From Candidatus Eiseniibacteriota bacterium (GTDB lineage: Bacteria > Eisenbacteria > RBG-16-71-46), in the NCBI GenBank assembly GCA_963707915.1, contig OY970178.1, positions 1,216,001 to 1,280,000 on the forward strand: a stretch of DNA of 64,000 nt, written 5' to 3'. The notes under the pieces were generated by a model. The model was not told the origin of the DNA. It searched no databases and saw only the letters and a list, made by a program, of their open reading frames with translations. Positions 26,038-40,392 of the stretch are shown one piece after another. How positions within the stretch are numbered: position 1 is the first letter of the stretch; the number at the start of each line of letters is the position of its first letter. The position numbers and the translations under genes were made by a program.

Positions 26038-27063
26038 TCAGCGCGTGCCCGAGGCCCAGGTGACCAGGCCGCGGCGTTCGAACTGGAAGGGCACCACCTG
26101 CCCGCCGTGCTTCTCGAGGACCGCGGCCACACGGTGCTTGCGGTCGAAGCGCGTCAGCAGCAGGAAGTAGCCGCCGCCGCCCGCGCCGGGCATCTTCCCG
26201 CCGATGGCGCCCTCGCGGCGCGCGAGCCGGTAGAGCCGGTCCACGTGGCTGTTCGAGATGCCCTCGTCCAGCCGCTTCTTGGACTCCCACGCTTCGTGCA
26301 GCAGCTCACCCAGCGCGTCCACCTTGCCGAGCAGCAGGGCCTTCTTCATCTCGAGCGTCTCGTTCTTGAGCCGGCGCAGCGCTTCCACCACGTCCGCGCG
26401 GCCGGCCCGGTAGGCCGCGGTCTGGCGCTCGATGATCTTCGCCGACTGGCGGGTCTGGCCCATGTAGCAGAGCAGCAGGCGGTACTCGAGCTCGTTCAGG
26501 ACGTCGGCGCGGATGCGCAGCGGGTTCACGACCGTGGCGTCGGCGTTGAACTCGATGAAGTTGAAGCCACCGAAGGCCGAGGCATACTGGTCCTGCCTCC
26601 CGCCCGCCAGCCCGAGGTCCACGCGCTCGATGCGGTACGCCAGCTCGGCGACGTCGTAGTCGGGCATCGGCCGCCGCAGCCACCCGCTCATCACGCCGAT
26701 CAGGGCCACCACCAGCGTCGAGGAGGAGCCGAGCCCCGAGCCCGGGGGCGCGTCGGAGTGGACCCAGAGATCGGCGCCGCGGCGCACCTTGAAGGCGCGC
26801 ACCACCGCCTTGATGAGGTCCAGGTTCCCGTCGAGCTTCATGCGGCGCGGGTGGTCGTAGCGGGCGACCATGTCGTAGTCGAGGCTCGCGAGCGTCAGTC
26901 GCGAATCGCGCCGCGGCCGCAGCGAGGCGTAGGCGTACTGGTTGATGGTGGCCGAGAGCACCATGCCGCCGTGCTCCTCGGGGTACGGCGAGACGTCGGT
27001 GCCGCCGCCGCACAGCGAGATGCGCAGCGGCGCGCGCGCGCGGAAATAGGACGCGGTCCTCAC
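26038..27063 (-). CDS. hddA: D-glycero-alpha-D-manno-heptose-7-phosphate kinase (GHMP kinase)
   Basis: APLRISLCGGGTDV, DAPPGSGLGSSS, GGRQDQYASAFGGFN, GKMPGAGGGG. Confidence 0.82.
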   Translation of the reverse strand: MRTASYFRARAPLRISLCGGGTDVSPYPEEHGGMVLSATINQYAYASLRPRRDSRLTLASLDYDMVARYDHPRRMKLDGNLDLIKAVVRAFKVRRGADLWVHSDAPPGSGLGSSSTLVVALIGVMSGWLRRPMPDYDVAELAYRIERVDLGLAGGRQDQYASAFGGFNFIEFNADATVVNPLRIRADVLNELEYRLLLCYMGQTRQSAKIIERQTAAYRAGRADVVEALRRLKNETLEMKKALLLGKVDALGELLHEAWESKKRLDEGISNSHVDRLYRLARREGAIGGKMPGAGGGGYFLLLTRFDRKHRVAAVLEKHGGQVVPFQFERRGLVTWASGTR

Positions 27064-27773
27064 GAGCCGAACCTCCGTTCCGCCCGCTCCCAGTCCTCGG
27101 GCGTGCCGATGTCGAAGAACTCCCCCTCGACCGGGAGTGCCGCCAGCCGGCCCTCGGCGGCGAGCGCCGGCAGCACGTCGCGCTCGAGCGAGAACGTCGC
27201 GGCCGCCCGGCCGCGGGGCGGGCGGGGCATGTACCGCCACATCTCCGGATCGAAGGCGTACAGCCCGCCGTTGACCCACGCCGCACCGGCCTGCGCCGGG
27301 TCCTTCTCGACGAAGCGCGCCACGTGGCCGTCGGGCCCCAGCTCGACGCGCCCGCGGCCCGCGGCGTCCGTCACGCGGAAGATCGCGACCGCTCCCAGCG
27401 CCCCGTTCTCCCAGCGCATGCGCTCGAGCGCCCAGGGATCGCAGGGGGCCAGCGTGTCGCCGTTCGCCACCAGGCAGGGCCCGGTGACGAAAGGCGACGC
27501 CAGCTGCAGGGCCCCCCCGGTGCCGAGCGGCTCCTCCTCCACCGAGTGACGGAGCGTCACGCCCAGCGCCGCGCCATCGCCGAGCGCGGCGCGCACCGCG
27601 TCCGCGCCGTAGCCGGTGCACAGCACGGCGTCGCGCACGGCCGCGGCGGCCAGCCACTCGAGCTGCCGCGCCAGGAACGGCCTGCCGCCCAGCGGCGCGA
27701 GCGGCTTGGGCAGTTCGCCGAACCGCGGCTTGAGCCGCGTCCCCAGGCCGCCCGCGAGGATGAAGACCCTCAT
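27060..27773 (-). CDS. hddC: Sugar-1-phosphate nucleotidyltransferase, HddC-like
   Basis: ILAGGLGTRL, PKPL, EEPLGTGGA, ANGDT, FVEK, FFDIGTPED; adjacent to hddA. Confidence 0.75.
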   Translation of the reverse strand: MRVFILAGGLGTRLKPRFGELPKPLAPLGGRPFLARQLEWLAAAAVRDAVLCTGYGADAVRAALGDGAALGVTLRHSVEEEPLGTGGALQLASPFVTGPCLVANGDTLAPCDPWALERMRWENGALGAVAIFRVTDAAGRGRVELGPDGHVARFVEKDPAQAGAAWVNGGLYAFDPEMWRYMPRPPRGRAAATFSLERDVLPALAAEGRLAALPVEGEFFDIGTPEDWERAERRFGS

Positions 27774-28747
27774 GCCGGATCGTCCAGGTTGTAGCGCCGC
27801 CGCACCGGGTAGTCGGAGTGCGCACGCATGTGGGCGATCATCTCGCCCAGCAGGCCCATGAGGATGAACTGGAGGCCGCTGAGCAGGCACCAGCCCGCGA
27901 GCAGCATGAGCGGACGCGTGCGCATGGGCGTGCCGGTGGCCCACTGCCCCAGGAACCACAGCGAGATCGCGCCGCCGACGATCAGGAACAGCCCGCCGAC
28001 GCGGCCGAAGACGTGCAGCGGCTTGAGCGCGCTGGTCGAGATGAAGGCCGCCGAGATCAGGTCGAGGAAGCCGTTCGCGAAGCGCGCCGCCCCGAACTTG
28101 CTGCGGCCGTGCCGGCGCGCGCGGTGCTGCACCGACACCTCGCCCACGCGGAAGCCCTGCCAGTGCGCGAGCGCCGGCAGCACGCGGTGCAGCTCGCCGT
28201 AGACCTGGATCGCCTCGGTCACCTCGCGGCGGTAGAGCTTGAAGCCGCAGTTGAAATCGTGCAGGCGCAGCCCCACGACCCAGGAGGTCACCAGGTTGTA
28301 GACCTTCGAGGGGAAGCGCTTGGTGAACGGGTCCTGCCGTTTCAGCTTCCAGCCCGACACCAGGTCGAGCCCGCCCTCGAGCGCCTCGACCAGCTTCGGC
28401 AGCTCGGCCGGGTCGTCCTGCAGGTCGGCGTCCAGCGTCAGGACCCACTCGCCGCGGGCCAGGCGGAAGCCGGTCGCCAGCGCGGCGGCCTTGCCGTAGT
28501 TCCCGCGGAACGAGACGCCGCGCACCCGCGGGTCGGCGGCGGCGAGCCGCTCGACCACCCGGTCCGTCCCGTCGCGCGAGCCGTCGTCGATGTAGATCAC
28601 CTCCCAGCGCCGGCCCAGCCGGTCCAGGGCGGCGGCCAGCTCCCGCTGCAGCTCGGGCAGGCTCTCGGCCTCGTTCCAGGCCGGGATCACCGCCGTGATG
28701 AGGATGCCGCGCCCGTCGCCGCCGTCCGCAGCCGTCGCCTGGTCCAT
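27770..28747 (-). CDS. GT2 polyprenyl-phosphate glycosyltransferase (GtrB/ArnC-like, two C-terminal TMs)
   Basis: IPAWNE, IDDGSRDGT, NYGKAAAL, DADLQDDP, HDFNCGFKLY, GELHR. Confidence 0.88.
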   Translation of the reverse strand: MDQATAADGGDGRGILITAVIPAWNEAESLPELQRELAAALDRLGRRWEVIYIDDGSRDGTDRVVERLAAADPRVRGVSFRGNYGKAAALATGFRLARGEWVLTLDADLQDDPAELPKLVEALEGGLDLVSGWKLKRQDPFTKRFPSKVYNLVTSWVVGLRLHDFNCGFKLYRREVTEAIQVYGELHRVLPALAHWQGFRVGEVSVQHRARRHGRSKFGAARFANGFLDLISAAFISTSALKPLHVFGRVGGLFLIVGGAISLWFLGQWATGTPMRTRPLMLLAGWCLLSGLQFILMGLLGEMIAHMRAHSDYPVRRRYNLDDPA

Positions 28748-29703
28748 CACCGGCCCTCCCCGTAGATGCCGCGAGCCCACTCCGCCTCCGCTGCGAGCCC
28801 CTGCTCGATGCCGACCGTGGGCACCATCCCCAGCGCGGCCCGCAGCCGGGTCGAGTCCGCGCGGGTGCGCAGCGGGTCGCCGGGGGGCGTGGCCTCGTAT
28901 CGCACGTTGGCCTTCACTCCGAGCAGCCCCTCGAGCAGGGCCACGACCTCGCGGACCTCGACCTGGGAGCCGCCGCCGACGTTGTAGGTCACCGGGCCGC
29001 CGCCGCGCTCCCAGGCGAGGAAGGTGGCCTCCACGGCGTCGGCGACGAAGGTGAAGTCGCGCGACTGCGCGCCGTCGCCGTAGACCGTGAGGGTCTCGCC
29101 GCGCAGCATCGCGCGGCAGAAGCGGTGGAAGGCCATGTCGGGGCGCTGGCGCGGGCCGTAGACCGTGAAGTAGCGCAGCGCCACGGCCGGCAGGCCGAAG
29201 TTGCGGCCGTAGAGCAGCACTAGGTGCTCGCCCGCGAGCTTGGTGACCCCGTAGGGCGAGAACGGGCGCGGCAGCAGGTCCTCGGGCGTCGGGTAGCGTT
29301 CGGCGTCCCCGTAGACGGACGACGACGAGGCGTAGACGAAGCGCTGGAGACGGCCCCCGCGGTAGCGCTCGAGCATCCGCTGCGTGGCGAGCACGTTGTG
29401 GTGCGCGTAGGCGGCGAACTCGGTCCCCCACGAGGCGCGCACACCCGGCTGGGCGGCCAGGTGGAACACCACGTCGACCTCGGGCAGGGTGGTCAGGTCG
29501 GCCGCGGCCAGGTCCATCTCGAGCAGGCGGAAGCGCTCGTCCGCGAGCGGCCCCGCGAGGTTCGCGCGCTTGATCGTCGGATCGTAGTAGTCCGTGAAGG
29601 CATCCACCCCCGTCACCCGCGCCCCGCTGGCGAGCAGGCGCTCGACCAGGTGGGACCCGATGAACCCCGCGGCCCCGGTCACCAACGCGTGCGCCATGCT
29701 CAC
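28747..29703 (-). CDS. NAD-dependent nucleotide-sugar epimerase (UDP-glucuronate 4-epimerase-like)
   Basis: TGAAGFIGS, HLAAQPGVRAS, SSSSVYG, YGVTK, YGPRQRPDMAF. Confidence 0.9.
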   Translation of the reverse strand: MSMAHALVTGAAGFIGSHLVERLLASGARVTGVDAFTDYYDPTIKRANLAGPLADERFRLLEMDLAAADLTTLPEVDVVFHLAAQPGVRASWGTEFAAYAHHNVLATQRMLERYRGGRLQRFVYASSSSVYGDAERYPTPEDLLPRPFSPYGVTKLAGEHLVLLYGRNFGLPAVALRYFTVYGPRQRPDMAFHRFCRAMLRGETLTVYGDGAQSRDFTFVADAVEATFLAWERGGGPVTYNVGGGSQVEVREVVALLEGLLGVKANVRYEATPPGDPLRTRADSTRLRAALGMVPTVGIEQGLAAEAEWARGIYGEGR

Positions 29704-29716
29704 GGACTTCCTCCTC

Positions 29717-32473
29717 TCAGGGCTGGTTCGACATCTGCGGTGGCGGGATGGGTGCGCCCCGCGCCGCCTGGGGCCTCATCGTCTGCAGGATGGACTGCGC
29801 CCGCTGCTCCCCGGGGTTCACCTCCACCAGCCGCTGCAGGTAGCCCAGCGCCCGCTCGGTCTGCCCCGCCTGCGTCAGCGTGAAGTAGGCGCCGTAGTAC
29901 GGCTGCGCGGCGCCCGGGTCCAGCCCGATCGCGGCGTCGAACTCCCGCAGCGCCCCGGCCAGGTCGCGCTGGAACGCCAGCGTGACGCCGTAGTAGTAGT
30001 GCCCCTGGGCGTCGCCGGGCTGGCGCTGCACGAGCGTGCGGAAGAGCGTCGCCGCCCCGGCCGTGTCGCCCTTCTCCATGTAGAAGCCGCCCAGCCAGAC
30101 CAGCACTTCGGTGAAGTCCGGGAACATGCGCTGCACGCGCTCCATCTCCCCGATGGCGCGGTCGAGCTGGCCCTGGCGCCGGAAGTGGAAGGCGAGCCGC
30201 ACGTGCGCCGAGGCGTAGTTGCGCGAGAGCGTCGAGGCGTTCTCGTCCTTGTACACCGTCGGGTCCCACGAGCCGTCGGCCGTGAACAGACCGTCGTAGC
30301 GGAACCGGTGATACAGGTTCCGCTCCATCGCCGGCACGTCGATGTCACCCTGCAGCGAGTCCCGGTTCACCCGGTAGACCAGCCCCTCGAGCGTGAAGTA
30401 GGGATCGAGGCCGAAGTGCTCGGGGACGGTGACGGCGAAGTACGGCTGCTTGATCCAGCCGGTGTCGCGCCGCGACGCCTCGATGATGTGCCCGACCATG
30501 AAGTCGCTGGTGTAGATGATGCGGCCCGCACTGTCCCGGACCGCCCCGCCGCCGAGCATCCGGATGACGTCGTCGGGCAGGTCGATCGGCACCTTCGGCT
30601 CCTGGTCGCGCAACTGGAAGATGTACCAGTCGGTGTTCAGCAGGCTCAGGTTCACGACCTTGACGTCCTTGCGGAAGCCCTCGACCTGCTGGATGTACCA
30701 CAGCGGGTAGGTGTCGTTGTCGCCGTTGGTGAACACGAACGAGTTCGGCGCCAGCGGCGCCAGGATGTTCCACGCGTAGTCCCGCGCCACCGTGTTCCGG
30801 CTGTTGTCCGAGCTGAACCACAGGTTGCGCATCACCACGAACGGCTGCACCGCCAGCAGCACCGCCGCCGCCGCCGTCGCCGTCCGCCGCGTCACCCCCG
30901 GCTCGAACGAGTCCCGGATCCACCCCACCAGCCCCACGATCCCCAGCCCCATCCAGATCGTGTACGTCAGGTAGCCGGTCGTGAAGAAGTAGTCCCGGTC
31001 CCGCACCTCCTGGTCGCTGAAGTTCAGGAACAGGATCATCCCCACCGTCGCGAACAGGAACAGCGTCAGCATGGTCAGGAACGTCACCCGCTCCCGCCGC
31101 GCCTGCCAATAGCCCCCCAGCCCCCCCAGCAGCAGCGGCAGCAGCACCTGCCACAGCCGCGGCTCGCCCTGCACCGGGATCCCGCCCTCCACCTTCAGCG
31201 TGCTCGCCAGCGGCCACTGCCGCTTCCAGTACCGCCAGAACTCCTTGTCCAGCTGCGTGCGCAGCGTCCCCCGCCGCACGAACATGCTGGTGTGCCCGTA
31301 CTGCTCGCGCTCCAGCAGCCGCTTCAGCGCCGGCCAGTCCGACGGCGTGCCCATGTTGATCGCCGGGTGCTGCGCCGCCCGGATCGGCAGGTACAGGTGC
31401 GTCGAGTAGCCCGCCGTCATCAGGAACAGCGCCAGCGCCAGGATCCGCCCCTCGCGGTGCCGCAGCGCCAGCGCCACCACCGGCACCACCACCACCGCCA
31501 CCGACACCAGCGCCGCCAGCGGCGTGAACGCCGCCGGCCCGAACGCGAAGTACGCCCCGTACAGCGCCCCCGCCGTCGCCCCCAGCGCCAGCCACGCCTC
31601 CAGCTTGCGCTGCGCCACGTAGTACCAGAACACCAGGATCGACAGCACCAGGATGATCCCCGCCATCCGCTCCAGCCCGTACGTCACCCCCAGCACCGAC
31701 GCCATCGGCATCGCGAACAGCACGAACACCCGCCGGTCCACCAGCGCCAGCAGCACCAGCAGCGGCAGCCCCATCATCCCCACCCCCAGCATCAGCCCCA
31801 CCGACAGCCACATCACGTACACCGCCACCAGCAACGGCCCCACCGTCGGCCGCTGCTCGTGCGCCTCCCACCAGCGCAGCGCCAGCCACAGGATCAGCAC
31901 CTGCGCCATCGCCATCTCCGAGTACGTCTCCGCCCCGGTCGCGTTGTCCCAGAAGTTGCTCGAGAACGCCAGCATCAACGCCCCCGTCACCGCCCCCAGC
32001 TGCGCCAGCCACTCCGTCCCCAGCATCGCCAGCAGCCCCGGCCCCTTCGCCAGCAGGTCCGGCACCGCCACCGGCTCCGCCGCCGCCGCCATCACGCCCC
32101 GCCGCTGCGCGATGCGGATCAGCCGCAGCGTCACCAGGTAGGTCAGCAGCACCCCCAGCGCCGAGGCCAGCGCCGACATCCCGTTCACCCGCTGCGCCAC
32201 GTTCCCCAGCGGCACCAGCGTCGCCACCCGGCCCAGTAGCACGTAGAACGGCGTCCCCGGCGGGTGCGGGATGCCCAGGATCTTCGAGACCGTGATGAAC
32301 TCGCCCGCATCCCAGAACGGGACGGTCGGCGCCAGCGTGCGCAGGTAGACGCCCAGGGCGGCGAGGAACACCAGCAGGCCGATCAGGGGGGTCGGCTGGC
32401 CCGCCCTGGGGGCGGGCGACGCGGGCGTGGTCGTGTCCTTCAAGAGTGCCTCCATGGCCGCCGACTGCTGCAC
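29717..32473 (-). CDS. DUF2723/TMEM260-like GT-C protein O-mannosyltransferase with C-terminal TPRs, copy A (start may be ATG 32455)
   Basis: FWDAGEFI..GIPHPPGTPFY, AETYS, YLPIRA, REQYG, RDRDYFF, FTNGDNDTYPLWYIQQVEG, GLVYR, TPR tail. Confidence 0.88.
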   Translation of the reverse strand: MQQSAAMEALLKDTTTPASPAPRAGQPTPLIGLLVFLAALGVYLRTLAPTVPFWDAGEFITVSKILGIPHPPGTPFYVLLGRVATLVPLGNVAQRVNGMSALASALGVLLTYLVTLRLIRIAQRRGVMAAAAEPVAVPDLLAKGPGLLAMLGTEWLAQLGAVTGALMLAFSSNFWDNATGAETYSEMAMAQVLILWLALRWWEAHEQRPTVGPLLVAVYVMWLSVGLMLGVGMMGLPLLVLLALVDRRVFVLFAMPMASVLGVTYGLERMAGIILVLSILVFWYYVAQRKLEAWLALGATAGALYGAYFAFGPAAFTPLAALVSVAVVVVPVVALALRHREGRILALALFLMTAGYSTHLYLPIRAAQHPAINMGTPSDWPALKRLLEREQYGHTSMFVRRGTLRTQLDKEFWRYWKRQWPLASTLKVEGGIPVQGEPRLWQVLLPLLLGGLGGYWQARRERVTFLTMLTLFLFATVGMILFLNFSDQEVRDRDYFFTTGYLTYTIWMGLGIVGLVGWIRDSFEPGVTRRTATAAAAVLLAVQPFVVMRNLWFSSDNSRNTVARDYAWNILAPLAPNSFVFTNGDNDTYPLWYIQQVEGFRKDVKVVNLSLLNTDWYIFQLRDQEPKVPIDLPDDVIRMLGGGAVRDSAGRIIYTSDFMVGHIIEASRRDTGWIKQPYFAVTVPEHFGLDPYFTLEGLVYRVNRDSLQGDIDVPAMERNLYHRFRYDGLFTADGSWDPTVYKDENASTLSRNYASAHVRLAFHFRRQGQLDRAIGEMERVQRMFPDFTEVLVWLGGFYMEKGDTAGAATLFRTLVQRQPGDAQGHYYYGVTLAFQRDLAGALREFDAAIGLDPGAAQPYYGAYFTLTQAGQTERALGYLQRLVEVNPGEQRAQSILQTMRPQAARGAPIPPPQMSNQP
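30662..32292. repeat. Copy A of 1.63 kb near-identical direct repeat with intense strand skew (GRINS-like)
   Basis: Matches 34485-36115 at constant offset 3823; only two substitutions spotted by eye (32025/35848, 32237/36060); plus strand strongly C- and A-rich. Confidence 0.9.
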
Positions 32474-32506
32474 TCACCTCGGTGCTGTTCAACGAGTTGG
32501 GCTGCG

Positions 32507-32515
32507 AGCCTACCA
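32507..32515 (-). promoter_or_regulatory. Putative extended -10 internal promoter for DUF2723 copy A and downstream genes
   Basis: TGGTAGGCT (TGn + TAGGCT) in the intergenic gap, ~35 nt upstream of the start and an AGGTG RBS-like motif. Confidence 0.45.
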
Positions 32516-32654
32516 CCGAGGGCGACCGCACGGAAGCGCGTGGCGCCGCGCGGGCCCCGCGGACCTCGATCCCGGATGCGCGCGGCCGGCCGCCCGGGCG
32601 CGAGCGGCCCGGGGGACGCGGCGGGACACCCGGCGCGACCGCCCGCTCCCGCGA

Positions 32655-33482
32655 TCAGCAGATCGACTCCCGCTCCTTGGCGACCCGGGCCCCGCCGCCC
32701 GTCCACGACGGGTCACGCTCGAACTCGAGGAAGAGATGCTTGCCGAAGAGCACCGCGGGATGGAGGTTCAGCCGCACCATCTCCCGGCCGGTCGCCCGCT
32801 TGGCGCCGGGATCCAGCGCCGGGTCCCGGCGCAGGCTCGAGAGGTAGGCGTAGGCGCTGGCCAGCGCCAGCAGCGGGTACAGGAAGGCCAGCGCCAGCGA
32901 CGTGCCGCTGGCGCGCACGGCGTGGATCCGCTTGATGCGCAGCCCGGCGACGCGGGCGAGGACGCGCAGCCGCTGGGCCGGGAGGAGGAAGAGATGGCCG
33001 AAGTACATCTCTCCCCGCGCGGAGAACCAGACGCCATTGAGTTCGTTCTCGGGAAGCCGGTTGTACAGATCGCTCTCGAGCAGGAGGTGACTCAGCCTCG
33101 CCCTCAGGTGGGAGGGGTTCGGGGTCGTCAGCACCAGCGTCCCGTCGCGCTTCAGGATGCGGCGCAGCTCCTGGAGGGCGAAGAGCTGGTTGGGGAGGTG
33201 CTCGATCCCCTCCTGGCAGAGCACCAGGTCGGCGTGCTCGTCGTCGATCGGCAGGGGCTTCTGCAGGTCCGCCGTACGGCAGGCGACGCCACGGGCCCGG
33301 TGGAACTCCGGGAACAGGTCGTAGGCCTCCACCCGGGCTCCCCGCTCGATCAGCAGGTCGTCGAGGTAGCCGGTCCCTGCGGGGATGTCCACGACCGTCG
33401 CGCCGGCGAGTCCCGGCATCCGGGCGAAGTGCTCGCGGACGACGTTCTTGATGTCCCCGCTCGCTCGGGAGAAGCGGAGCAT
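32655..33482 (-). CDS. Class I SAM methyltransferase between the DUF2723 paralogs
   Basis: VVDIPAGTG, DLVLCQEGIEHL, RILKRDGTLVLTTPN. Confidence 0.82.
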   Translation of the reverse strand: MLRFSRASGDIKNVVREHFARMPGLAGATVVDIPAGTGYLDDLLIERGARVEAYDLFPEFHRARGVACRTADLQKPLPIDDEHADLVLCQEGIEHLPNQLFALQELRRILKRDGTLVLTTPNPSHLRARLSHLLLESDLYNRLPENELNGVWFSARGEMYFGHLFLLPAQRLRVLARVAGLRIKRIHAVRASGTSLALAFLYPLLALASAYAYLSSLRRDPALDPGAKRATGREMVRLNLHPAVLFGKHLFLEFERDPSWTGGGARVAKERESIC

Positions 33483-33551
33483 GTCAGGCGCCCGAAGACG
33501 GGTCGGCGGCCGGGTCCGTGGACCCGCGGACCGCGACGGCGCAGCCCGGCC

Positions 33552-36281
33552 TCAAGGCCGGCCGGGCGGCGGGACCGGCATCGCCGAGGCCCGGGGCCTC
33601 ATCATCTGCAGGATGGCCTGCGCCTGCTGCTCCCCCGGGTTCGCCTCCACCAGCCGCTGCAGGTAGCCCAGCGCCTGCTCGGTCTGCCCCGCCTGGCCCA
33701 GCGTGTAGTAGGCGCCGTAGTACGGCCGCACGTACGTGGGATCCAGCCGGATCGCGGCGTCGAACTCCCGCAGCGCCCCGGCCAGGTCGCGCTGGAACGC
33801 CAGCGTGATGCCCAGGTAGTAGCGGACCTCCGGATTGTCGGGCCGGCGCTGCGCCAGGCCCCGGAAGAGCTCCAGCGCCTTGGCCGTGTCACGCTTCTCC
33901 ATGTAGAAGCCACCCAGCGGGATCAGCACGTCGGCGAAGTCCGGGAACATGCGCTGCACGCGCTCCATCTCCCCGATGGCGCGGTCGAGCTGGCCGCGCT
34001 GGTGGTAGACGTAGGCGAGCTGCAGATGCGCCGAGGCGTAGTTGCGCGAGAGCGTCACGGCGCTCTCGTCCTTGAACACCGTGCGATCGATCGAGCCGTC
34101 GGCCGTGAACAGACCGTCGTAGCGGAACCGGTGATACAGGTTCCGCTCCATCGCCGGCACGTCGATCGGGGCCTGCAGCGAGTCCCGGTTCACCCGGTAG
34201 ACCAGCCCCTCGAGCGTGAGGTAGGGACCGTAGCCCCGGTGGTCCGGCGCCGTCACCGCGAAGTACGGCTGCTTGATCCAGCCGGTGTCGCGCCGCGACG
34301 CCTCGATGATGTGCCCGACCATGAAGTCGTTGGTGTAGATGACGCGGCCCTCGTTGTCCTCGAAGGCCCCGCCCCCGATCCCCCGGACGACCTCGTCGGG
34401 CAGGTCGATCGGCACCTTCGGCTCCTGGTCGCGCAACTGGAAGATGTACCAGTCGGTCTGGAGCAGGGCGAGACAGACGACGCGGACGTCCTTGCGGAAG
34501 CCCTCGACCTGCTGGATGTACCACAGCGGGTAGGTGTCGTTGTCGCCGTTGGTGAACACGAACGAGTTCGGCGCCAGCGGCGCCAGGATGTTCCACGCGT
34601 AGTCCCGCGCCACCGTGTTCCGGCTGTTGTCCGAGCTGAACCACAGGTTGCGCATCACCACGAACGGCTGCACCGCCAGCAGCACCGCCGCCGCCGCCGT
34701 CGCCGTCCGCCGCGTCACCCCCGGCTCGAACGAGTCCCGGATCCACCCCACCAGCCCCACGATCCCCAGCCCCATCCAGATCGTGTACGTCAGGTAGCCG
34801 GTCGTGAAGAAGTAGTCCCGGTCCCGCACCTCCTGGTCGCTGAAGTTCAGGAACAGGATCATCCCCACCGTCGCGAACAGGAACAGCGTCAGCATGGTCA
34901 GGAACGTCACCCGCTCCCGCCGCGCCTGCCAATAGCCCCCCAGCCCCCCCAGCAGCAGCGGCAGCAGCACCTGCCACAGCCGCGGCTCGCCCTGCACCGG
35001 GATCCCGCCCTCCACCTTCAGCGTGCTCGCCAGCGGCCACTGCCGCTTCCAGTACCGCCAGAACTCCTTGTCCAGCTGCGTGCGCAGCGTCCCCCGCCGC
35101 ACGAACATGCTGGTGTGCCCGTACTGCTCGCGCTCCAGCAGCCGCTTCAGCGCCGGCCAGTCCGACGGCGTGCCCATGTTGATCGCCGGGTGCTGCGCCG
35201 CCCGGATCGGCAGGTACAGGTGCGTCGAGTAGCCCGCCGTCATCAGGAACAGCGCCAGCGCCAGGATCCGCCCCTCGCGGTGCCGCAGCGCCAGCGCCAC
35301 CACCGGCACCACCACCACCGCCACCGACACCAGCGCCGCCAGCGGCGTGAACGCCGCCGGCCCGAACGCGAAGTACGCCCCGTACAGCGCCCCCGCCGTC
35401 GCCCCCAGCGCCAGCCACGCCTCCAGCTTGCGCTGCGCCACGTAGTACCAGAACACCAGGATCGACAGCACCAGGATGATCCCCGCCATCCGCTCCAGCC
35501 CGTACGTCACCCCCAGCACCGACGCCATCGGCATCGCGAACAGCACGAACACCCGCCGGTCCACCAGCGCCAGCAGCACCAGCAGCGGCAGCCCCATCAT
35601 CCCCACCCCCAGCATCAGCCCCACCGACAGCCACATCACGTACACCGCCACCAGCAACGGCCCCACCGTCGGCCGCTGCTCGTGCGCCTCCCACCAGCGC
35701 AGCGCCAGCCACAGGATCAGCACCTGCGCCATCGCCATCTCCGAGTACGTCTCCGCCCCGGTCGCGTTGTCCCAGAAGTTGCTCGAGAACGCCAGCATCA
35801 ACGCCCCCGTCACCGCCCCCAGCTGCGCCAGCCACTCCGTCCCCAGCGTCGCCAGCAGCCCCGGCCCCTTCGCCAGCAGGTCCGGCACCGCCACCGGCTC
35901 CGCCGCCGCCGCCATCACGCCCCGCCGCTGCGCGATGCGGATCAGCCGCAGCGTCACCAGGTAGGTCAGCAGCACCCCCAGCGCCGAGGCCAGCGCCGAC
36001 ATCCCGTTCACCCGCTGCGCCACGTTCCCCAGCGGCACCAGCGTCGCCACCCGGCCCAGCAGCACGTAGAACGGCGTCCCCGGCGGGTGCGGGATGCCCA
36101 GGATCTTCGAGACCGAGATGAACTCGCCCGCGTCCCAGAACGGCGCGGACGGCGCCAGCGTGCGCAGGTAGACGCCCAGGGCGGCGAGGAACACCAGCAG
36201 GCCGGCCATGAAGGTCAGGCGTCCCGGGCCCCGGTCCGTGCCGGGCACGCCGGGGGCGGTCGAAGAGGTCTTGTCCGTCAC
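33552..36281 (-). CDS. DUF2723/TMEM260-like GT-C protein O-mannosyltransferase with C-terminal TPRs, copy B
   Basis: Same motifs as copy A; GTG overlaps upstream TGA. Confidence 0.88.
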   Translation of the reverse strand: MTDKTSSTAPGVPGTDRGPGRLTFMAGLLVFLAALGVYLRTLAPSAPFWDAGEFISVSKILGIPHPPGTPFYVLLGRVATLVPLGNVAQRVNGMSALASALGVLLTYLVTLRLIRIAQRRGVMAAAAEPVAVPDLLAKGPGLLATLGTEWLAQLGAVTGALMLAFSSNFWDNATGAETYSEMAMAQVLILWLALRWWEAHEQRPTVGPLLVAVYVMWLSVGLMLGVGMMGLPLLVLLALVDRRVFVLFAMPMASVLGVTYGLERMAGIILVLSILVFWYYVAQRKLEAWLALGATAGALYGAYFAFGPAAFTPLAALVSVAVVVVPVVALALRHREGRILALALFLMTAGYSTHLYLPIRAAQHPAINMGTPSDWPALKRLLEREQYGHTSMFVRRGTLRTQLDKEFWRYWKRQWPLASTLKVEGGIPVQGEPRLWQVLLPLLLGGLGGYWQARRERVTFLTMLTLFLFATVGMILFLNFSDQEVRDRDYFFTTGYLTYTIWMGLGIVGLVGWIRDSFEPGVTRRTATAAAAVLLAVQPFVVMRNLWFSSDNSRNTVARDYAWNILAPLAPNSFVFTNGDNDTYPLWYIQQVEGFRKDVRVVCLALLQTDWYIFQLRDQEPKVPIDLPDEVVRGIGGGAFEDNEGRVIYTNDFMVGHIIEASRRDTGWIKQPYFAVTAPDHRGYGPYLTLEGLVYRVNRDSLQAPIDVPAMERNLYHRFRYDGLFTADGSIDRTVFKDESAVTLSRNYASAHLQLAYVYHQRGQLDRAIGEMERVQRMFPDFADVLIPLGGFYMEKRDTAKALELFRGLAQRRPDNPEVRYYLGITLAFQRDLAGALREFDAAIRLDPTYVRPYYGAYYTLGQAGQTEQALGYLQRLVEANPGEQQAQAILQMMRPRASAMPVPPPGRP
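34485..36115. repeat. Copy B of 1.63 kb near-identical skewed direct repeat (GRINS-like)
   Basis: Matches 30662-32292. Confidence 0.9.
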
Positions 36282-37303
36282 GAACTCCTCCGCATCTGTC
36301 GAGCGGCTGCACGGCGCCGGGGCGCGCGGGCCAGGAACACCAGGCCTCCCAGCAGACTGACCGCGACCGCCACGAGGTAGACGGTGAATTGTAGCGTGAA
36401 AGCCTCCGCGCGGCCCACACCCACCAGGCCGAACAGGACGATGCCCGTTCCCTCGCGCACGCCGATCCCGTTCAGCGAGATGGGCAGCGAGACCGCGATG
36501 GCGAGCAGCGGGACGAGCAGGAAGAAGAACTGCAGCCGCAGGTCGAGGCCCAGCGCGCGGGCCACCAGCACGTGCACGCCGATGCGCGCGACCTGCACCA
36601 CGATCGCCACGCCGAGCAGCCGCGCGAACAGGCCGCGGCGGTCACGGAAGTCGCGCAGCCGCCCGGCGAGGTCGTCCAGCGCCTGGTGGAACCCGCCCAG
36701 GCCGACGCGGGCCAGGCCGCGCTGCAGCACCGGCAGCGACGCGGGATGGAAGACCACCCAGGTCATGGCGACGCTGAGCGCGAAGAAGCCGACCAGCGCG
36801 AGGTAGACGGCCGAGATCGGCAGCCCCCCGACCTGATGGAAGTCCCGGAACGCGGGCAGCGTGGTGACCAGCGCGAGGCCGGCCAGCGCCAGCGTGCCGA
36901 GCAGGCGGTCCATGATCACGGTCGAGAAGGCGGCGGCGCGGCTCGGCCCGTAGCGTGCGGCGTCCAGCACGCGGGCGAAGTCGCCGCCGACGTTCGCGGG
37001 CAGGAAGTTGTTGAAGAAGAGCCCGACGTGGTAGTAGGACAGCACCTTCCAGAACGGGATGCGGATCTCGACCGCGCGCAGCAGCTGCTGCCACTGCCAG
37101 GCCCCCAGCACGTTGCTGGCGAGCAGCAGCGCGGCCGAGGCGGCCAGCCAGCCCGGATCCACGCCGCGCAGCGTCGCGCCCAGGTCGGCGAGGGGGATGC
37201 GGGCGAACAGGAAGGCCATCAGCCCCAGGCTGAAGATCACCTTGGCAGCGAGCAGCGACGCGCCGCGCCAGCCCGGCCGGCCCTCCGCGCGCGCCACGCT
37301 CAT
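36278..37303 (-). CDS. UPF0104 / lysylphosphatidylglycerol-synthase-TM family putative flippase
   Basis: GLFFNNFLPANVGGD, MDRLLG, LPISLNGIGVRE. Confidence 0.87.
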   Translation of the reverse strand: MSVARAEGRPGWRGASLLAAKVIFSLGLMAFLFARIPLADLGATLRGVDPGWLAASAALLLASNVLGAWQWQQLLRAVEIRIPFWKVLSYYHVGLFFNNFLPANVGGDFARVLDAARYGPSRAAAFSTVIMDRLLGTLALAGLALVTTLPAFRDFHQVGGLPISAVYLALVGFFALSVAMTWVVFHPASLPVLQRGLARVGLGGFHQALDDLAGRLRDFRDRRGLFARLLGVAIVVQVARIGVHVLVARALGLDLRLQFFFLLVPLLAIAVSLPISLNGIGVREGTGIVLFGLVGVGRAEAFTLQFTVYLVAVAVSLLGGLVFLARAPRRRAAARQMRRSS

Positions 37304-38424
37304 CCCCTGCCGTCCGCCCCGAGCAGGGCGTCGAGCGAGCGGCGAGCACAGTCCGGCCAAGTGAAGCGCGCCGCCCGGGCGCGGCCCTCGGCCTCGAAGC
37401 GCGCGCGCAGCGCGCCGTCCTCGAGCACCCGGGCCAGCGCGTCGGCCAGGCGCGCGTCGTCCCCGTACGGCACCAGCAGCCCGGTCTGGTCCCGGCACAC
37501 CGAATCGCGCAGGCCGGGGCTGTCGGCCGCCACCACCGCGGTCCCGCAGGCGCCCGCCTCCACCACCGTGAGGCCCCAGCCCTCCTTGGGCGAGGGCTGC
37601 ACCAGCGCCCACGCCTGCTGCAGGGCCCGCACCGTCTCCGCGCGCGGCAGGAAGCCGCGGAACTCGACCGCCTCCCCCACGCCCAGGCGGCGCGCGGCCT
37701 GCACCAGCTCCGCGCGGAACGGCCCGTCCCCGATCACGACCAGCCGCGCGCCGGGCACCCGTTCGCGCACCCGCGGCATGGCGCGCATCACCCAGTCCAC
37801 GCCCTTGTAGCGGCGCAAGCGCCCGAGGAAGACGATGGTGGGCCCGGCGTCCTTCGCGACCGCCGGGTCGTGGCGATAGGTCCCGTGGTCCATGCCGCAG
37901 TGCACCACGCGGACGCGCTCCGGGGCGATCCCGCGGCGCACCAGGTCGTCCCGCGTGCTCTCCGAGATGGCGACGAACGGCGAGCGGCGGTAGACGAACG
38001 GGATGAGCCACTCGAGCAGCACGACGTAGGTCGCGACCGGGACCGAGGCCTCGAGGAACGCGGTGGCCCCGAACAGGTGCGGCACGATCGCCGCCACCGG
38101 GGCGGCCGTCCACCAGGGCGCGAAGCACGGGATCTTGTTGATGTCCTCGACCACGAGTCCGGGCGCGGGATCCGAGAACTCCCGCCGCAGCACGCCCGGC
38201 ACCACGAGGTTGAAGTTCCACCAGGTGCCGCGCCGCACGACGCGCATCCCCCGGTGCGTGGACTCGGGCGCGCCGCCCGGGAAACCGCAGGCCAGCCAGG
38301 TCACGCGCCAGCCGCGCCGCACCGCCTCGAGCAGGATCTCCTCGAGGTGCAACTCGGCCCCGCCCGCCTCGGGGTGCGCCGGGTCGCGGAAGTTGATGGC
38401 CAGCAGGTGGGGCGCGGCGCTCAT
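37300..38424 (-). CDS. GT4 family glycosyltransferase
   Basis: NFRDPAHPEAGGAE, GRLRRYKG, KEGWGLTVVEAGACGT, PGLRDSV. Confidence 0.9.
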   Translation of the reverse strand: MSAAPHLLAINFRDPAHPEAGGAELHLEEILLEAVRRGWRVTWLACGFPGGAPESTHRGMRVVRRGTWWNFNLVVPGVLRREFSDPAPGLVVEDINKIPCFAPWWTAAPVAAIVPHLFGATAFLEASVPVATYVVLLEWLIPFVYRRSPFVAISESTRDDLVRRGIAPERVRVVHCGMDHGTYRHDPAVAKDAGPTIVFLGRLRRYKGVDWVMRAMPRVRERVPGARLVVIGDGPFRAELVQAARRLGVGEAVEFRGFLPRAETVRALQQAWALVQPSPKEGWGLTVVEAGACGTAVVAADSPGLRDSVCRDQTGLLVPYGDDARLADALARVLEDGALRARFEAEGRARAARFTWPDCARRSLDALLGADGRG

Positions 38425-39212
38425 GGCTTCTCGGCCACCGTGCCGATGACGTGGCAGGTGTAGAGCGCCCAGCGTCGACGGCCGAGCCGCGCGCGCAGCC
38501 CCTCCCAGCCCGACCGCCAGAAGCGCGGGCCCGCCGGCTCGAGCGGCAGGGAGACGCGCAGCGTCCGCCGGAGTCCCTCGCGCAGGACGCGGTAGCCGAG
38601 CCCCGGCACCATCCACTCGCCGTAGCTGCGCCGGGGCGCGAGACCGCTCGCCTCCAGCAGGCGCTCCAGTCCCGCGGGCGTGAACTGGGTCTCCCAGCCC
38701 GCGAACCAGCGGTTCAGCGCGATCAGGACCTGCTTCATCAGCGTGTAGGGGTGGAAGGTCTGCGGCACGTCCACGATCACGCGCCCGCCGCGCGCCGCGA
38801 CGCGGGCGTTCTCGCGCAGCAGCGGCAGCGGATCGCGGAAGTGCTCGAGCAGGCCCTGGTGGAAGACCACGTCGAAGGCGCCGTCGCGGAACGGCATGCG
38901 CAGCGCGTCGGCCTGCACCAGCAGCACCGGCACGCCCTGCTCACCGGCCTGGCGCCGCACCAGCCCGAGCGAGGCCGGGGAGTAGTCGAGCACCACCCCC
39001 ACCGCGCCCGCGCGCGCCAGGGCCAGCAGGTCGCGGCCCGAGCCGGCCCCCACCTCCATCACCCGGCGGCCCGCGACCGGCCCCTCGCGCAGCACCTCGC
39101 GGGCCAGGCGCCCGCCGGTCGAGTAGGTCCGGTCGAGGTCGGCGTGACCCTTCCAGTACGACTCCCAGTGATCCAGCGTGGACTCGCGCCGCGCGGTCGG
39201 ATCGCCCGTCAT
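38421..39212 (-). CDS. Class I SAM methyltransferase
   Basis: MEVGAGSGRD, DALRMPF, FDVVFHQGLLEHF. Confidence 0.85.
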   Translation of the reverse strand: MTGDPTARRESTLDHWESYWKGHADLDRTYSTGGRLAREVLREGPVAGRRVMEVGAGSGRDLLALARAGAVGVVLDYSPASLGLVRRQAGEQGVPVLLVQADALRMPFRDGAFDVVFHQGLLEHFRDPLPLLRENARVAARGGRVIVDVPQTFHPYTLMKQVLIALNRWFAGWETQFTPAGLERLLEASGLAPRRSYGEWMVPGLGYRVLREGLRRTLRVSLPLEPAGPRFWRSGWEGLRARLGRRRWALYTCHVIGTVAEKP

Positions 39213-39943
39213 CACTCCCCCCACTGCAACCGGTCGCCCAGGAAGGGCGGCAGCCCGGCGTCCAGGATGCGTTTTCGCGCCGCCAGGAGATCGTAGTCCA
39301 CGCGCACTTGGCGCACCCAGCCGCGCCCGTCGTCCCAGAGGAGATAGCCGGCGCGCGGATCGCCGTCGCGCGGCTGGCCCACGCTCGGCACGATCACCAG
39401 GAAGCGGCCACCCGGGTCGAGCGGGATCTCCGGCTCGCGGCTGAAGACGACCTCGCCGGTGACGCCGTCGAGCCGGTACGCGCCCGGCCGGTGCAGGTGC
39501 CCGACCAGGCAGAGCGGCTCGATGAACGTGTCGAACTCGGCGCGCGCCTCCCCGACCTCCAGCACGTAGTGCCAGGATCGCGGCGCGGACGGCGAGGCGT
39601 GCACCAGCAGCGCGCCCGCGTGGCGGACCGTGATGGGCAGGGACTCCAGGTAGGCCTGGCACGCGGGCGTGAGGACCGTCGCGGTCCAGCGCGCGGCCTG
39701 CGCCGCGTTGGAGCCGAAGCTCCCGAGCCGGATCCGGCCGCACACCGCCACGTCGTGGTTCCCCGCCACCGCCGCCGTGACGACCGGGCGCAGGCGCTCG
39801 ATGCATTCGTTGGGCGAGGCCCCGTAGCCCACGAAGTCGCCGAGGCAGAGGATCTCGCGGGCACCGGACCGCCCGACATCTGCGAGCACCGCCTCGAGCG
39901 CCTCGAGGTTGCTGTGGATGTCCGAGAGGACGGCGCGCAGCAT
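39212..39943 (-). CDS. Calcineurin-like metallophosphoesterase
   Basis: SDIHSN, LGDFVGYG, GNHD, VHASP, GHLH, SVGQPRDGDPRA. Confidence 0.9.
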   Translation of the reverse strand: MLRAVLSDIHSNLEALEAVLADVGRSGAREILCLGDFVGYGASPNECIERLRPVVTAAVAGNHDVAVCGRIRLGSFGSNAAQAARWTATVLTPACQAYLESLPITVRHAGALLVHASPSAPRSWHYVLEVGEARAEFDTFIEPLCLVGHLHRPGAYRLDGVTGEVVFSREPEIPLDPGGRFLVIVPSVGQPRDGDPRAGYLLWDDGRGWVRQVRVDYDLLAARKRILDAGLPPFLGDRLQWGE

Positions 39944-40392
39944 CAGAGCTCTTCCGGACGCAGGCGCCGCGCCACCTGGTCGAGCACGCCGTTGACGAAG
40001 CCCCCCGACTCCGTCGAGCCGTAGCGCCGGGCCAGGTCGATGGCCTCGTCGAGCACCACCCGCGCGGGCGTGCCCGGGCGGGCCATCAGCTCCGCCACCG
40101 CGACGCGCAGGACCGACCGGTCGGTGGCGGCCAGCCGCTCGAGCGGCCAGTGCGCGCAGGCCGCGGCGAGCGTGGCGTCCACTTCGGCCCCGCGGACCTC
40201 GAGCAGCTTCACCACGTCGTCCACCAGTTCCCGCTGGTCGTCGCTCACCGTCGCGTCGGCGCCCACCGCCTTCCAGGTGGCCGCGTAGCCGTCACCCGTG
40301 AGGGCGCCCTGGTAGGCGATCTTGAACGCCAGCTCGCGGGCCTGGCGGCGCGCGGTCGTGCCCGCGCGCGACTTCCGTTCGCGATCGCTCAA
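39943..40392 (-). CDS. nusB: Transcription antitermination factor NusB
   Basis: RRQARELA, WPLERLAATDRSVLR, VVLDEAIDLARRYG, FVNGVLD. Confidence 0.94.
   Translation of the reverse strand: MSDRERKSRAGTTARRQARELAFKIAYQGALTGDGYAATWKAVGADATVSDDQRELVDDVVKLLEVRGAEVDATLAAACAHWPLERLAATDRSVLRVAVAELMARPGTPARVVLDEAIDLARRYGSTESGGFVNGVLDQVARRLRPEEL

Follow-up and report, generated by a model that had tools for sequence, protein, structure and literature searches.

Repeats that combine high identity with strong nucleotide skew were described in 2021 as GRINS, without a mechanism in the available text, and are defined numerically as duplicated segments of >500 bp with >80% DNA identity and mean |GC| and |TA| skews >0.15 in 150-nt windows moved in steps of 30 (PMC8256042). 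According to the same text, GRINS are spread over many phyla and gene families, transposases are the commonest GRINS genes in all but one of the five phyla surveyed, and the skews switch sign abruptly. The papers that our literature search returned under the full GRINS name all concern megasynthases. A second point of comparison is tuf, the classic long-lived conversion pair, which converts in many phyla; the word ‘skew’ has no occurrence in the available text of the source on tufA/tufB concerted evolution (PMC6053082).

The window analyzed here, a stretch of 64,000 nucleotides to which all positions refer, is part of the complete 3.6 Mb genome of an uncultivated soil bacterium. Within a glycan-synthesis cluster (GT2, GT4, epimerase and methyltransferase genes) it carries two tandem paralogues (Table 1) that both match PF11028 well above the curated cut-off (114.8 and 114.4 bits vs. 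24.2), which bears out their earlier assignment to the TMEM260-like family. ‘Mannosyltransferase’, the term also used in the preliminary description, is here only the name of the Pfam family, and O-mannosyltransferase activity is putative for both products. As in TMEM260-like/PMT-type GT-C glycosyltransferases, both genes encode an N-terminal multi-pass membrane domain and C-terminal TPRs, whereas a tandem pair with an identical core and a diverged TPR part was confined, among the genomes searched, to this genus. The hydrophobic segments of gene 1 extend from residue 24 to 553, and the recoded block coincides with this hydrophobic core. Two long plus-strand ORFs (29594-32239 and 32427-36380) were rejected as shadows because the Pfam matches and a GC3 of 0.98-0.99 sit on the minus-strand frames. 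The methyltransferase gene between the paralogues shows no similarity to the epimerase gene that follows gene 1 (28747-29703).

Table 1. Features of the tandem gene pair and the evidence for each (positions in the window).
Feature	Position	Strand	Evidence
Gene 1 (P0001, 918 aa), TMEM260-like GT-C-type membrane domain and C-terminal TPR repeats	29717..32473	-	ORF; Pfam PF11028 E=5e-33 and TPR families; GC3 0.99 on frame
Gene 2 (P0002, 909 aa), paralogue sharing the architecture of gene 1	33552..36281	-	PF11028 E=6.6e-33
Conversion tract copy 1, near-identical block, gene 1 codons ~61-604	30662..32292	-	2 mismatches/1631 bases vs. copy 2; identity 0.999 within the genome vs. 0.88-0.90 to congeners
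Conversion tract copy 2	34485..36115	-	Offset 3823 from copy 1
G3-recoded core, copy 1	30734..32267	-	Maximum-likelihood change points; 322/343 fourfold sites G inside vs. 124/225 outside
G3-recoded core, copy 2	34557..36090	-	Maximum-likelihood change points; 324/345 fourfold sites G inside vs. 124/223 outside
Gene 1 C-terminal part (soluble, TPR), diverged, neither homogenised nor skewed; homologue of 33573-34484	29750..30661	-	~85.5% identity; G3 ratio ~0.55
Gene 2 C-terminal part, diverged	33573..34484	-	Identity count and cross-species orthology
Methyltransferase gene between the paralogues, outside the repeat	32655..33482	-	Pfam Methyltransf_23/11

The near-identity of the two blocks, for which two substitutions had been spotted, is exact in this respect: the only mismatches are at 32025 and 32237 (1629/1631 bases identical). 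A general repeat search listed just a 300-nt pair (84%) along with short sub-repeats at the same offset, and the long identity was measured by script. Beyond the block there are 136 mismatches in 940 bases over 29750-30690 (85.5% identity; this range passes the end of the C-terminal part at 30661 by 29 bases), with C-terminal mismatches at codon positions 1/2/3 numbering 41/51/44, and similarity between the copies is lost above ~32400.

Plus-strand GC skew ranges from -0.16 to -0.38 over ~30750-32250 and 34650-36150, and elsewhere in 27000-40000 it stays within ~±0.14, except for one window of -0.195 near 37500-37800. In copy 1, G ends 0.94 of the fourfold-degenerate codons of the block on the coding (minus) strand and 0.55 of those in the rest of the gene (counts in Table 1), which confirms the collapse to G-ending codons noted in the preliminary description. 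The change points of the skew fall short of the identity edges by 72 and 25 bases. Across the genome (150-codon windows, n = 11,643, from a crude ORF and GC3 filter yielding 1853 ORFs on 66% of the genome), the fourfold G ratio has a mean of 0.477 (sd 0.082), and hydrophobic windows (n = 542) have a mean of 0.51 (sd 0.089); the block, at 0.96-0.98, thus exceeds other membrane-protein windows, and the two highest windows of the genome (0.98 and 0.96) are both in gene 1/gene 2. GC skew at position 3 is +0.57 in the block vs. ~+0.02 in other genera, while positions 1 and 2 are unchanged; GC3 is ~99% inside and outside the block alike, and only 1-2 A/T bases occur at position 3 within it. The recoding of the block is purely synonymous, C-to-G. 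The plus strand had also been described as C/A-rich through recoding, which holds for the GC part. A TA skew does exist (mean |TA| 0.24), but lies entirely at codon position 2 (+0.39) and is equally present in unskewed orthologues of other genera (total +0.15 to +0.21), and is therefore attributable to hydrophobic residues rather than recoding.

Single-copy orthologues lack the skew, with G3 ratios (G-ending codons relative to G- plus C-ending codons) of 0.46-0.62 in 14 of 14 other genera; in 26 further loci (51-67% identity) the block ratio is 0.46-0.59. It is raised only in the genus that has the tandem pair (0.66-0.92). Block identity within a genome is 0.999 in this one (G000) and 0.976 in G004, a relative (5 contigs) with the same tandem pair, as compared with 0.88-0.91 between species. 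The C-terminal parts group by copy rather than by genome, copy 1 with G004_B and G005_1 and copy 2 with G004_A and G005_2. The duplication thus predates the species, and concerted evolution is limited to the block, while the C-termini show orthology among three species of the genus, which identifies the process as gene conversion, as previously proposed.

The diverged, orthologous C-terminal parts and the presence of the pair in G004 indicate at the sequence level that both genes are real. Polishing errors can produce 100% identity over 1.6 kb, and the block might be a duplicate made in assembly or polishing, the product of a very recent duplication, or a foreign segment of different codon usage, but all of these are very improbable here: C-termini and flanks are distinct, the former orthologously diverged; G004 has the two copies as well (97.6% identical in the block); the contigs of G005 and G001 are interrupted at the block, as a true repeat would lead one to expect; and assembly cannot create skew. 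The closest relatives of the block are congeneric blocks (0.84-0.90 identity), and it is therefore not foreign. Among the public sequencing runs searched for the stretch, none contained >0.17 of the sampled words, and a search of runs for pieces spanning it returned none, only short contig pieces of relatives.

At fourfold sites in codon families shared between G000 and G005, the block has 67 sites with G in G000 and C in G005 and 0 of the reverse, and the C-terminal part has 5 and 8. With G006 or G001 as outgroup, parsimony assigns these C/G changes mostly to G-to-C in the G004/G005 lineage, and distant outgroups split about evenly; given this ambiguity, the data are explained equally well by loss of skew in the relatives and by gain in G000. 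Where the copies differ at third positions, most differences are transitions and the C/G class is not dominant, which is weak evidence against a raw C-to-G mutation bias.

Set against the numerical definition of GRINS, the block has the length (1631 bp), the identity and the GC skew (mean |GC| 0.254-0.258; only 1.2% of 3000 random 1200-bp regions exceed the threshold of 0.15); the TA skew also exceeds the threshold, but so does that of 40% of random regions, and here its source is codon position 2. The copies are homogenised by conversion, as seen in the concerted block vs. the orthologous C-terminus. GRINS are further described as having correlated GC and TA skews strongest at position 3 and a shifted amino-acid composition (PMC8256042). 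At position 3 of the block only GC is skewed, the window-level correlation of GC and TA skew (r = 0.58) results from domain structure, and at positions 1 and 2 the block does not differ in skew from its unskewed orthologues. The term ‘GRINS-like’ used in the preliminary description therefore stands for the numerical definition and for conversion, and fails for third-position TA skew and an amino-acid shift; the block fits the descriptive class in a G/C-only, purely synonymous, single-sign form. As in the available text on GRINS, there is a link to gene conversion, a functional protein is recoded mainly at third positions, and single-copy skewed regions exist too (PMC8256042). Unlike in the published elements, the recoding here is G against C only, amino-acid composition is unchanged, one sign is kept along the tract and across all families of the genome, no transposase is affected, and the host phylum is uncultivated and outside the five surveyed, although the supplement of that paper may list such gene families.

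A scan of the genome for other skewed repeats, a check proposed in the preliminary description, revealed five strongly and two weakly G3-skewed paralogue families homogenised by conversion. Eleven of the 15 regions with |GC skew| >0.27 are in five repeat families of converted paralogues, which make up ~0.36% of the genome and include tuf, chemoreceptor (MCP) and kinase genes. In all seven mosaic families the repeated part has a higher G3 ratio (0.68-0.92) than the rest of the same gene (0.33-0.57), and skew grades with identity among families. The signalling domains of MCPs have ratios of 0.90-0.92 in three homogenised genes (the strand of the third copy was set by hand) vs. 0.46-0.50 in three non-homogenised ones. 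In seven mobile-element families, identical via transposition, the G3 ratio is 0.43-0.70 and none passed the GC-skew criterion. Skew is thus a mark of the majority of converted paralogue segments in this genome and is not special to the glycosyltransferase pair. The patches of one tandem pair (L033/L055), 94-100% identical, are unskewed (0.44), as is a 691-base tandem repeat with 96.5% identity and no recognised gene. The remaining four extreme-skew regions are single-copy, two of them without any paralogue; an Rfam search of one single-copy island (L043) gave no match. With dnaA at the cumulative-skew minimum, each of the 11 gene copies in the five strong families runs in the direction of replication, while the two weak families have one head-on copy each; all 15 gene copies, both head-on ones included, are G-rich on the coding (non-template) strand.

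The pair of tuf genes extends this comparison across the phylum. In 26 of 26 genomes for which the ratio was measured, tuf is G-recoded and the adjacent fusA is not. In 15 genomes of the order, and likewise in 12 genomes of five further families, tuf has a G3 ratio of 0.64-0.94, beside 0.39-0.52 in co-transcribed fusA; the two copies are 99.0-100% identical in 8/8 genomes, and the conversion tract equals the coding sequence. The second tuf copy has an apparent extra base. Copies held at such identity by conversion, here phylum-wide, are shared with the tufA/tufB literature, whereas skew is not reported in the available text of that source (PMC6053082). T3/(T3+A3) is 0.72 in tuf (T3 552, A3 212) and 0.69 in fusA (T3 266, A3 118), and a ‘purine-loading’ prediction, which requires A3 above T3 in tuf, is unsupported by these counts.

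Ordinary composition or selection, in which G-ending codons follow from membrane amino-acid content, translational selection or family codon usage, is contradicted by these comparisons and has very little probability left. The block is a hydrophobic core, G3 and hydropathy are weakly correlated genome-wide (r = 0.18), and the TA skew is indeed compositional. However, hydrophobic windows and orthologous membrane cores have ordinary ratios, as given above, the soluble proteins encoded by the tuf, MCP and kinase genes are skewed likewise, and fusA and ribosomal-protein genes have ratios of only 0.43-0.58. We conclude, with a probability of about 0.9, that the two genes are old tandem paralogues whose membrane cores are kept identical by interlocus conversion while their TPR parts diverge as orthologues, that the tract alone is driven to G at synonymous sites, and that it is one of five strong and two weak such families, of the GRINS class.

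We give slightly better than even odds to the view that the skew is a product of conversion and not its precondition, that a homologous partner is required, and that the mechanism combines heteroduplex of fixed polarity with a blind spot of mismatch repair. Four natural controls (orthologues, MCPs, tuf vs. fusA, and IS elements vs. paralogues) point to a homologous partner as the condition for skew. The heteroduplex would form with fixed polarity if, for example, the lagging-strand template, which would be the coding strand for these co-oriented genes, paired with the partner's template strand in gap repair. A C/G difference between copies would then give a C.C or a G.G mismatch. MutS-type repair would recognise and restore G.G, and C.C, being nearly invisible to MutS, would segregate into the converted copy. 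Over many rounds, G would build up on the coding and leading strand, with no drive on transitions and A/T sites. Both the polarity of the heteroduplex and the allele bias in conversion are inferred. MutS, MutL and RuvA are present in the genome, although presence alone does not discriminate between explanations, and a search of the genome for NucS_C found none. Several observations count against conversion as the source of the skew: the block copies of G004 are 97.6% identical with a ratio of only 0.67-0.71, the L033/L055 pair and the 691-base repeat are unskewed, and four skewed regions are single-copy. The G-rich coding strands of the head-on copies in the two mixed-orientation families are not predicted by a purely replication-linked drive; this orientation evidence comes from 2 families only, the number of families is small, and the relatives do not count as independent.

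The reverse order of events, which is the model in the Discussion of the GRINS paper as available (PMC8256042), appears unlikely but deserves serious weight. In it, one copy first becomes G-rich on the non-template strand through a local mutational process, and the resulting low-complexity, R-loop- or G-run-prone composition raises conversion, which spreads and maintains the skew, possibly with feedback. The block has the expected runs, with 33.9 G-runs per kb on the coding strand vs. 20.6 (sd 5.2) genome-wide and 2.0 C-runs per kb vs. 17.7, and thus the ‘non-template G clusters’ of R-loop-prone regions. Single-copy skew islands exist (4/15), the G-rich non-template strand of every gene copy, head-on or not, is what R-loop logic needs, and the grading of skew with identity also agrees with this order. 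Left unexplained are the location of 73% of extreme windows in 0.36% of the genome and the fact that, wherever both were measured in the phylum, tuf is skewed and co-transcribed fusA is not. Since tuf converts in many phyla (PMC6053082, available text), conversion does not obviously depend on skew. Given the repeated turnover of synonymous sites across the phylum, the drive has to be a persisting one, linked to the duplicated state. The density of G4 motifs in the block (0.65 per kb) is raised, yet below the genome 99th percentile (1.01), and deamination of a displaced strand would yield T3, which is absent.

Two further systems resemble the view that skew is a product of conversion in part. 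GC-biased gene conversion (gBGC) is a strand-symmetric fixation bias for G or C over A or T that operates solely in heteroduplex and looks like selection at silent sites. The drive proposed here would likewise be a fixation bias acting only in heteroduplex and mimicking such selection, whereas it favours G over C, on one strand, with GC3 equal inside and outside the block, and the pattern of gBGC is not found. Immunoglobulin switch regions are G-rich, R-loop-prone recombination targets. Shared with them are a G-rich non-template strand with G-runs over ~1-2 kb and an association with recombination; in contrast, the tracts here are coding sequences and not motif repeats, no deaminase signature (T3) is seen, and R-loops are putative.

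The pattern may help to explain the unexplained GRINS repeats. This genome offers natural controls that are impossible in a polyketide cluster, namely the same gene, domain or operon with and without a partner, and identity by transposition vs. conversion. They narrow the signal to a silent-site bias for G over C on one strand, and the cause of GRINS thereby becomes a testable question of mismatch handling in heteroduplex. Such tracts also break short-read assemblies (tuf was undetected at E <= 1e-100 in the genomes of 26 of 41 relatives, and contigs end at the block) and distort inference of expression or foreign origin from codon usage. More speculatively, and with considerable doubt on our part, GRINS skews in general may be the footprint of a lineage's mismatch-repair blind spots on fixed-polarity heteroduplex in interlocus conversion. 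If so, only C.C would escape in MutS/MutL lineages, giving G-only converted segments on one strand and no silent-site TA effect, while NucS/EndoMS lineages (Actinobacteria, many archaea), which would recognise G-T, G-G and T-T and miss C and A mismatches, would acquire G+T-rich segments, the classical correlated GC/TA skew. The sign switches of classical GRINS would be the two sides of a break, and the single sign seen here would reflect replication-linked, one-sided events. Every concertedly evolving gene, tuf included, would then be silently recoded, and the type of skew would be predictable from the repair genes of the organism.

P0001 and P0002 are predicted TMEM260-like proteins, their genes separated by a methyltransferase gene and set among GT2, GT4, epimerase and further glycan-synthesis enzymes. 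The source genome, G000, is one contig of 3.62 Mb (72% G+C). Among public sequencing runs, none was found to contain the stretch. The two genes can be aligned at an offset of 3823 from ~29750 to 32400; beyond ~32400 similarity is at random level. The segment 30662-32292 (the block) differs from its copy at 32025 and 32237, exactly the two substitutions that the preliminary description had counted, while 29750-30690 differs from 33573-34513 at 136 of 940 bases. These C-terminal differences are spread near-evenly by codon position (41, 51 and 44), which suggests that selection on the TPR-bearing part is relaxed or diversifying, though GC3 saturation limits third-position change.

Genes, recoded cores and repeat families of G000 (window positions unless marked G000:C1; the window is G000:C1:1216001-1280000)
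Feature	Position or loci	Strand	Description	Basis
Gene 1, P0001, 918 aa	29717-32473	-	match to PF11028 (E ~1e-33), C-terminal TPR repeats	Pfam
Gene 2, P0002, 909 aa	33552-36281	-	match to PF11028 (E ~1e-33), C-terminal TPR repeats	Pfam
G3-recoded core, copy 1	30734-32267	-		two-change-point fit
G3-recoded core, copy 2	34557-36090	-		two-change-point fit
Strong family, P0001/P0002 pair			99.9% identity in block	Pfam
Strong family, three chemoreceptor genes (signalling domain)	L044, L045, L037		97-99% identity	Pfam
Strong family, two tuf genes	L036:1-1200 (G000:C1:1890618-1891817); L054:1-1205 (G000:C1:1907443-1908647)		99.5% identity	Pfam
Strong family, two hybrid histidine kinases (kinase core + receiver)	L046, L047		98.9% identity	Pfam
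Strong family, second membrane/TPR pair	L048, L049		99.0% identity; 530 kb apart, inverted across origin	Pfam
Moderate family, Ig-domain surface proteins			92-94% identity	
Moderate family, sulfotransferase fusions			96.7% identity	
Single-copy skew region	L040:1-1012 region (G000:C1:1369389-1370400)		nearest sequences just 65-67% identical	
Single-copy skew region	G000:C1:1469400-1470200		one paralogue at 77%	
Single-copy skew region	L042		no paralogue	
Single-copy skew region	L043 (G000:C1:3339501-3340800)		no paralogue; 62% G+C	
Mutator-family IS copy	58168-59447		one of five near-identical copies, ~1280 bp	
Unskewed tandem pair	L033/L055 (G000:C1:3078976-3083190)		94-100% identity patches	

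Plus-strand GC skew falls to -0.38 in both block copies and stays within ~+/-0.14 in the flanks, save one window at -0.195 near 37500-37800. The recoded core, placed by the best two-change-point fit on coding-strand fourfold-degenerate sites, falls short of the two ends of the identical stretch by 72 and 25 bases; the skew lies almost exactly within the identical block, as had been proposed. Fourfold sites are G at 322 of 343 positions inside the core vs 124 of 225 outside. In a crude gene set (1853 high-GC3 ORFs, 66% of the genome), the fourfold-degenerate G3/(G3+C3) on the coding strand (G3 ratio) is 0.477 (sd 0.082; 150-codon windows, n = 11,643) and 0.51 in hydrophobic windows (sd 0.089; 150 codons, n = 542); P0001 and P0002 give the highest values of the genome (0.98 and 0.96), and hence exceed other membrane-protein windows.

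Third-position GC skew is +0.57 in the block vs ~+0.02 in orthologues of other genera, and GC skew at codon positions 1 and 2 is unaltered: the recoding is purely synonymous, C-to-G. The preliminary description had tied a strongly C/A-rich plus strand to the synonymous codon bias, which holds for the GC part. The TA skew is real, but it is located at codon position 2 (+0.39), and orthologues without the G3 skew have as much of it (total +0.15 to +0.21); it therefore reflects the abundance of T at the second position of codons for hydrophobic residues.

In codon alignments of the C-terminal part, G000_1 scores 0.873 against G004_B and 0.876 against G005_1 (G004 and G005 are congeners), G000_2 scores 0.882 against each of G004_A and G005_2, and G004_A scores 0.919 against G005_2; two copies within one genome score 0.867 and 0.881. 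Block copies within a genome score 0.999 (G000) and 0.976 (G004), vs 0.88-0.91 between species. The C-terminal parts are thus orthologous across species, and the duplication predates these species, with the block homogenised separately in each: a classic pattern of the gene conversion suggested earlier. At shared fourfold codon families of the block, 67 sites have G in G000 and C in G005 and none the reverse, compared with 5 and 8 in the C-terminal part. Near outgroups for C/G polarity are G-rich themselves and far ones are saturated; gain of G in G000 and loss of G in the G004/G005 lineage are both possible.

The gene was found in all 40 relatives searched. As expected of single-copy orthologues if the skew depends on the pair, the block ratio of the single close orthologue was 0.46-0.62, resembling that of the C-terminal part of the same gene, in 14 of 14 further genera within the family, and it was 0.46-0.59 in a second, independent sample (26 loci, 51-67% identity). 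Compared with those 14 genera, only the genus with the tandem pair has raised ratios: 0.66 in G005, 0.67/0.68 in G004, 0.76 in G001, 0.90 in G006 and 0.92 in G000, saturation at aligned G/C sites being patchy in the first three and complete in the last two. The G006 value is that of its intact copy; the upstream copy (L023:6700-7450, G006:C62) shows up only as a C-terminal fragment with an adjoining 71-base piece like the gene start, reflecting either a true internal core deletion or short-read repeat collapse. A contig assigned to a genome from another family (f3; L019, G033:C93; L105) carries the C-terminal half of the gene (83% identical) with a block ratio of 0.71-0.75, and is possibly a mis-binned piece of the tandem-pair genus.

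Fifteen regions of G000 have |GC skew| >0.27 (600-bp windows, sd 0.063). Genome self-comparison places 11 of them within five non-mobile repeat families, four of these being strong families additional to the P0001/P0002 pair; the other four regions are single-copy, and in one of them, L043, no ORF was convincing and Rfam gave no match. The G ratio is 0.85-0.92 in the repeats of the five strong families vs 0.48-0.57 in the remainder of the same genes, and 0.68-0.72 vs 0.33-0.49 in the two moderate families. In the chemoreceptor, kinase and membrane/TPR families the ‘constant’ module (signalling domain; kinase core and receiver; membrane core) is homogenised and G3-recoded, and the sensor or TPR part has diverged and shows no skew. 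Three non-homogenised chemoreceptor genes have ratios of 0.46-0.50 in the same signalling domain. Seven mobile families (Mutator-type IS, IS481, three IS3-type elements, a group II intron and an unnamed 8-locus element) range from 0.43 to 0.70, and none reaches the GC-skew threshold; the Mutator-family copy in the window is unskewed (0.43). Also unskewed are a duplicated SBF/FtsX segment (85-89% identity), a tandem repeat of 691 bp in which no gene was recognised and, despite its patches of high identity, the tandem pair L033/L055 (0.44). The L033/L055 proteins (688 and 691 aa, 89% identical overall) have no Pfam match; their N-terminal third is unusually C3-rich (0.21-0.36).

GRINS are defined as repeats of >500 bp and >80% identity with mean absolute GC skew and mean absolute TA skew each >0.15, and by this numerical definition, as worded in the available part of PMC8256042, the block is a GRINS, which bears out its first designation as GRINS-like. 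Four of the families qualify formally; the kinase pair does not, its TA skew being too low, and 0.47% of 3000 random 1200-bp regions pass both skew thresholds. The same part of that paper already places GRINS in many phyla and gene families; the present host lies outside the five phyla surveyed there. Unlike the GRINS it describes, the block has no third-position TA component, unaltered amino-acid composition and a single sign throughout, and no transposases are affected in this genome. Across the literature searched, the full name is used in five papers, each concerned with megasynthases.

All 15 genomes of the order that yielded tuf have tuf ratios within 0.64-0.94, as do 12 genomes of five further families; in the eight genomes where both copies are assembled, these are always 99.0-100% identical. 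The adjoining, co-transcribed fusA has 0.39-0.52 (10 loci) and 0.42-0.49 (7 loci), and ribosomal-protein genes near tuf 0.44-0.58. In this operon, at equal expression, strand and replication context, only the gene that has a homologous partner is recoded. Because silent sites have turned over repeatedly across the phylum, the drive on them must be ongoing. tuf is the best-known case of long-lived concerted evolution (PMC6053082, the available text of which does not mention skew), and our literature search found no paper linking tufA/tufB gene conversion with GC skew. The G000 tuf copies have a ratio of 0.89; the second has an additional G near nt 560, not in a homopolymer, which shifts the frame so that Pfam detects the GTPase domain alone; either this copy is truly a pseudogene or the additional base is an assembly error.

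Cumulative GC skew is lowest at 2.533 Mb, beside dnaA (2,534,870-2,535,355), and highest at 0.705 Mb. Background genes have ratios of 0.511 when co-oriented with replication vs 0.466 when head-on (sd 0.051 each). All 11 gene copies of the strong families are co-oriented; each of the two weaker families has one head-on copy, still G-rich on the coding strand. G-richness follows the coding strand in 15 of 15 copies and the leading strand in 13 of 15, and these copies do not separate the two effects.

Conversion is established, as are the skew's dependence on a partner, its confinement to G versus C at silent sites and its single sign; we infer, at a probability of roughly 0.55, that conversion produces the skew. 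The G004 block (97.6% identical yet only moderately skewed), one partly homogenised pair without skew and the four single-copy islands speak against this, and the head-on copies misfit a purely replication-linked drive. That skew instead promotes conversion is less likely; we favour conversion as the cause because duplicated DNA is strongly enriched in skew, the tuf/fusA contrast is sharp and copies identical through transposition are unskewed. Young third-position differences between copies are mainly transitions with no dominant C/G class, which weakly favours fixation bias over mutation bias.

MutS and MutL are present in the genome and NucS_C was not found in it. A C-C mismatch is scarcely recognised by MutS and left unrepaired, according to the available part of PMC5416779. 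If heteroduplex had a fixed polarity, joining the recipient’s coding/leading-sequence strand to the partner’s complementary strand, a C/G difference would yield either C.C or G.G, depending on the allelic configuration; C.C would evade repair and segregate as conversion to G, G.G would be recognised and restored, and G would ratchet upward, leaving transitions and A/T sites untouched. This ratchet model fits the G/C-only pattern, and A/T silent sites are unaffected, as it expects. NucS prefers G-T, G-G and T-T mismatches (available text of PMC8228993); we therefore speculate that the same logic in NucS lineages would give rise to the G+T skew that classical GRINS show in Actinobacteria.
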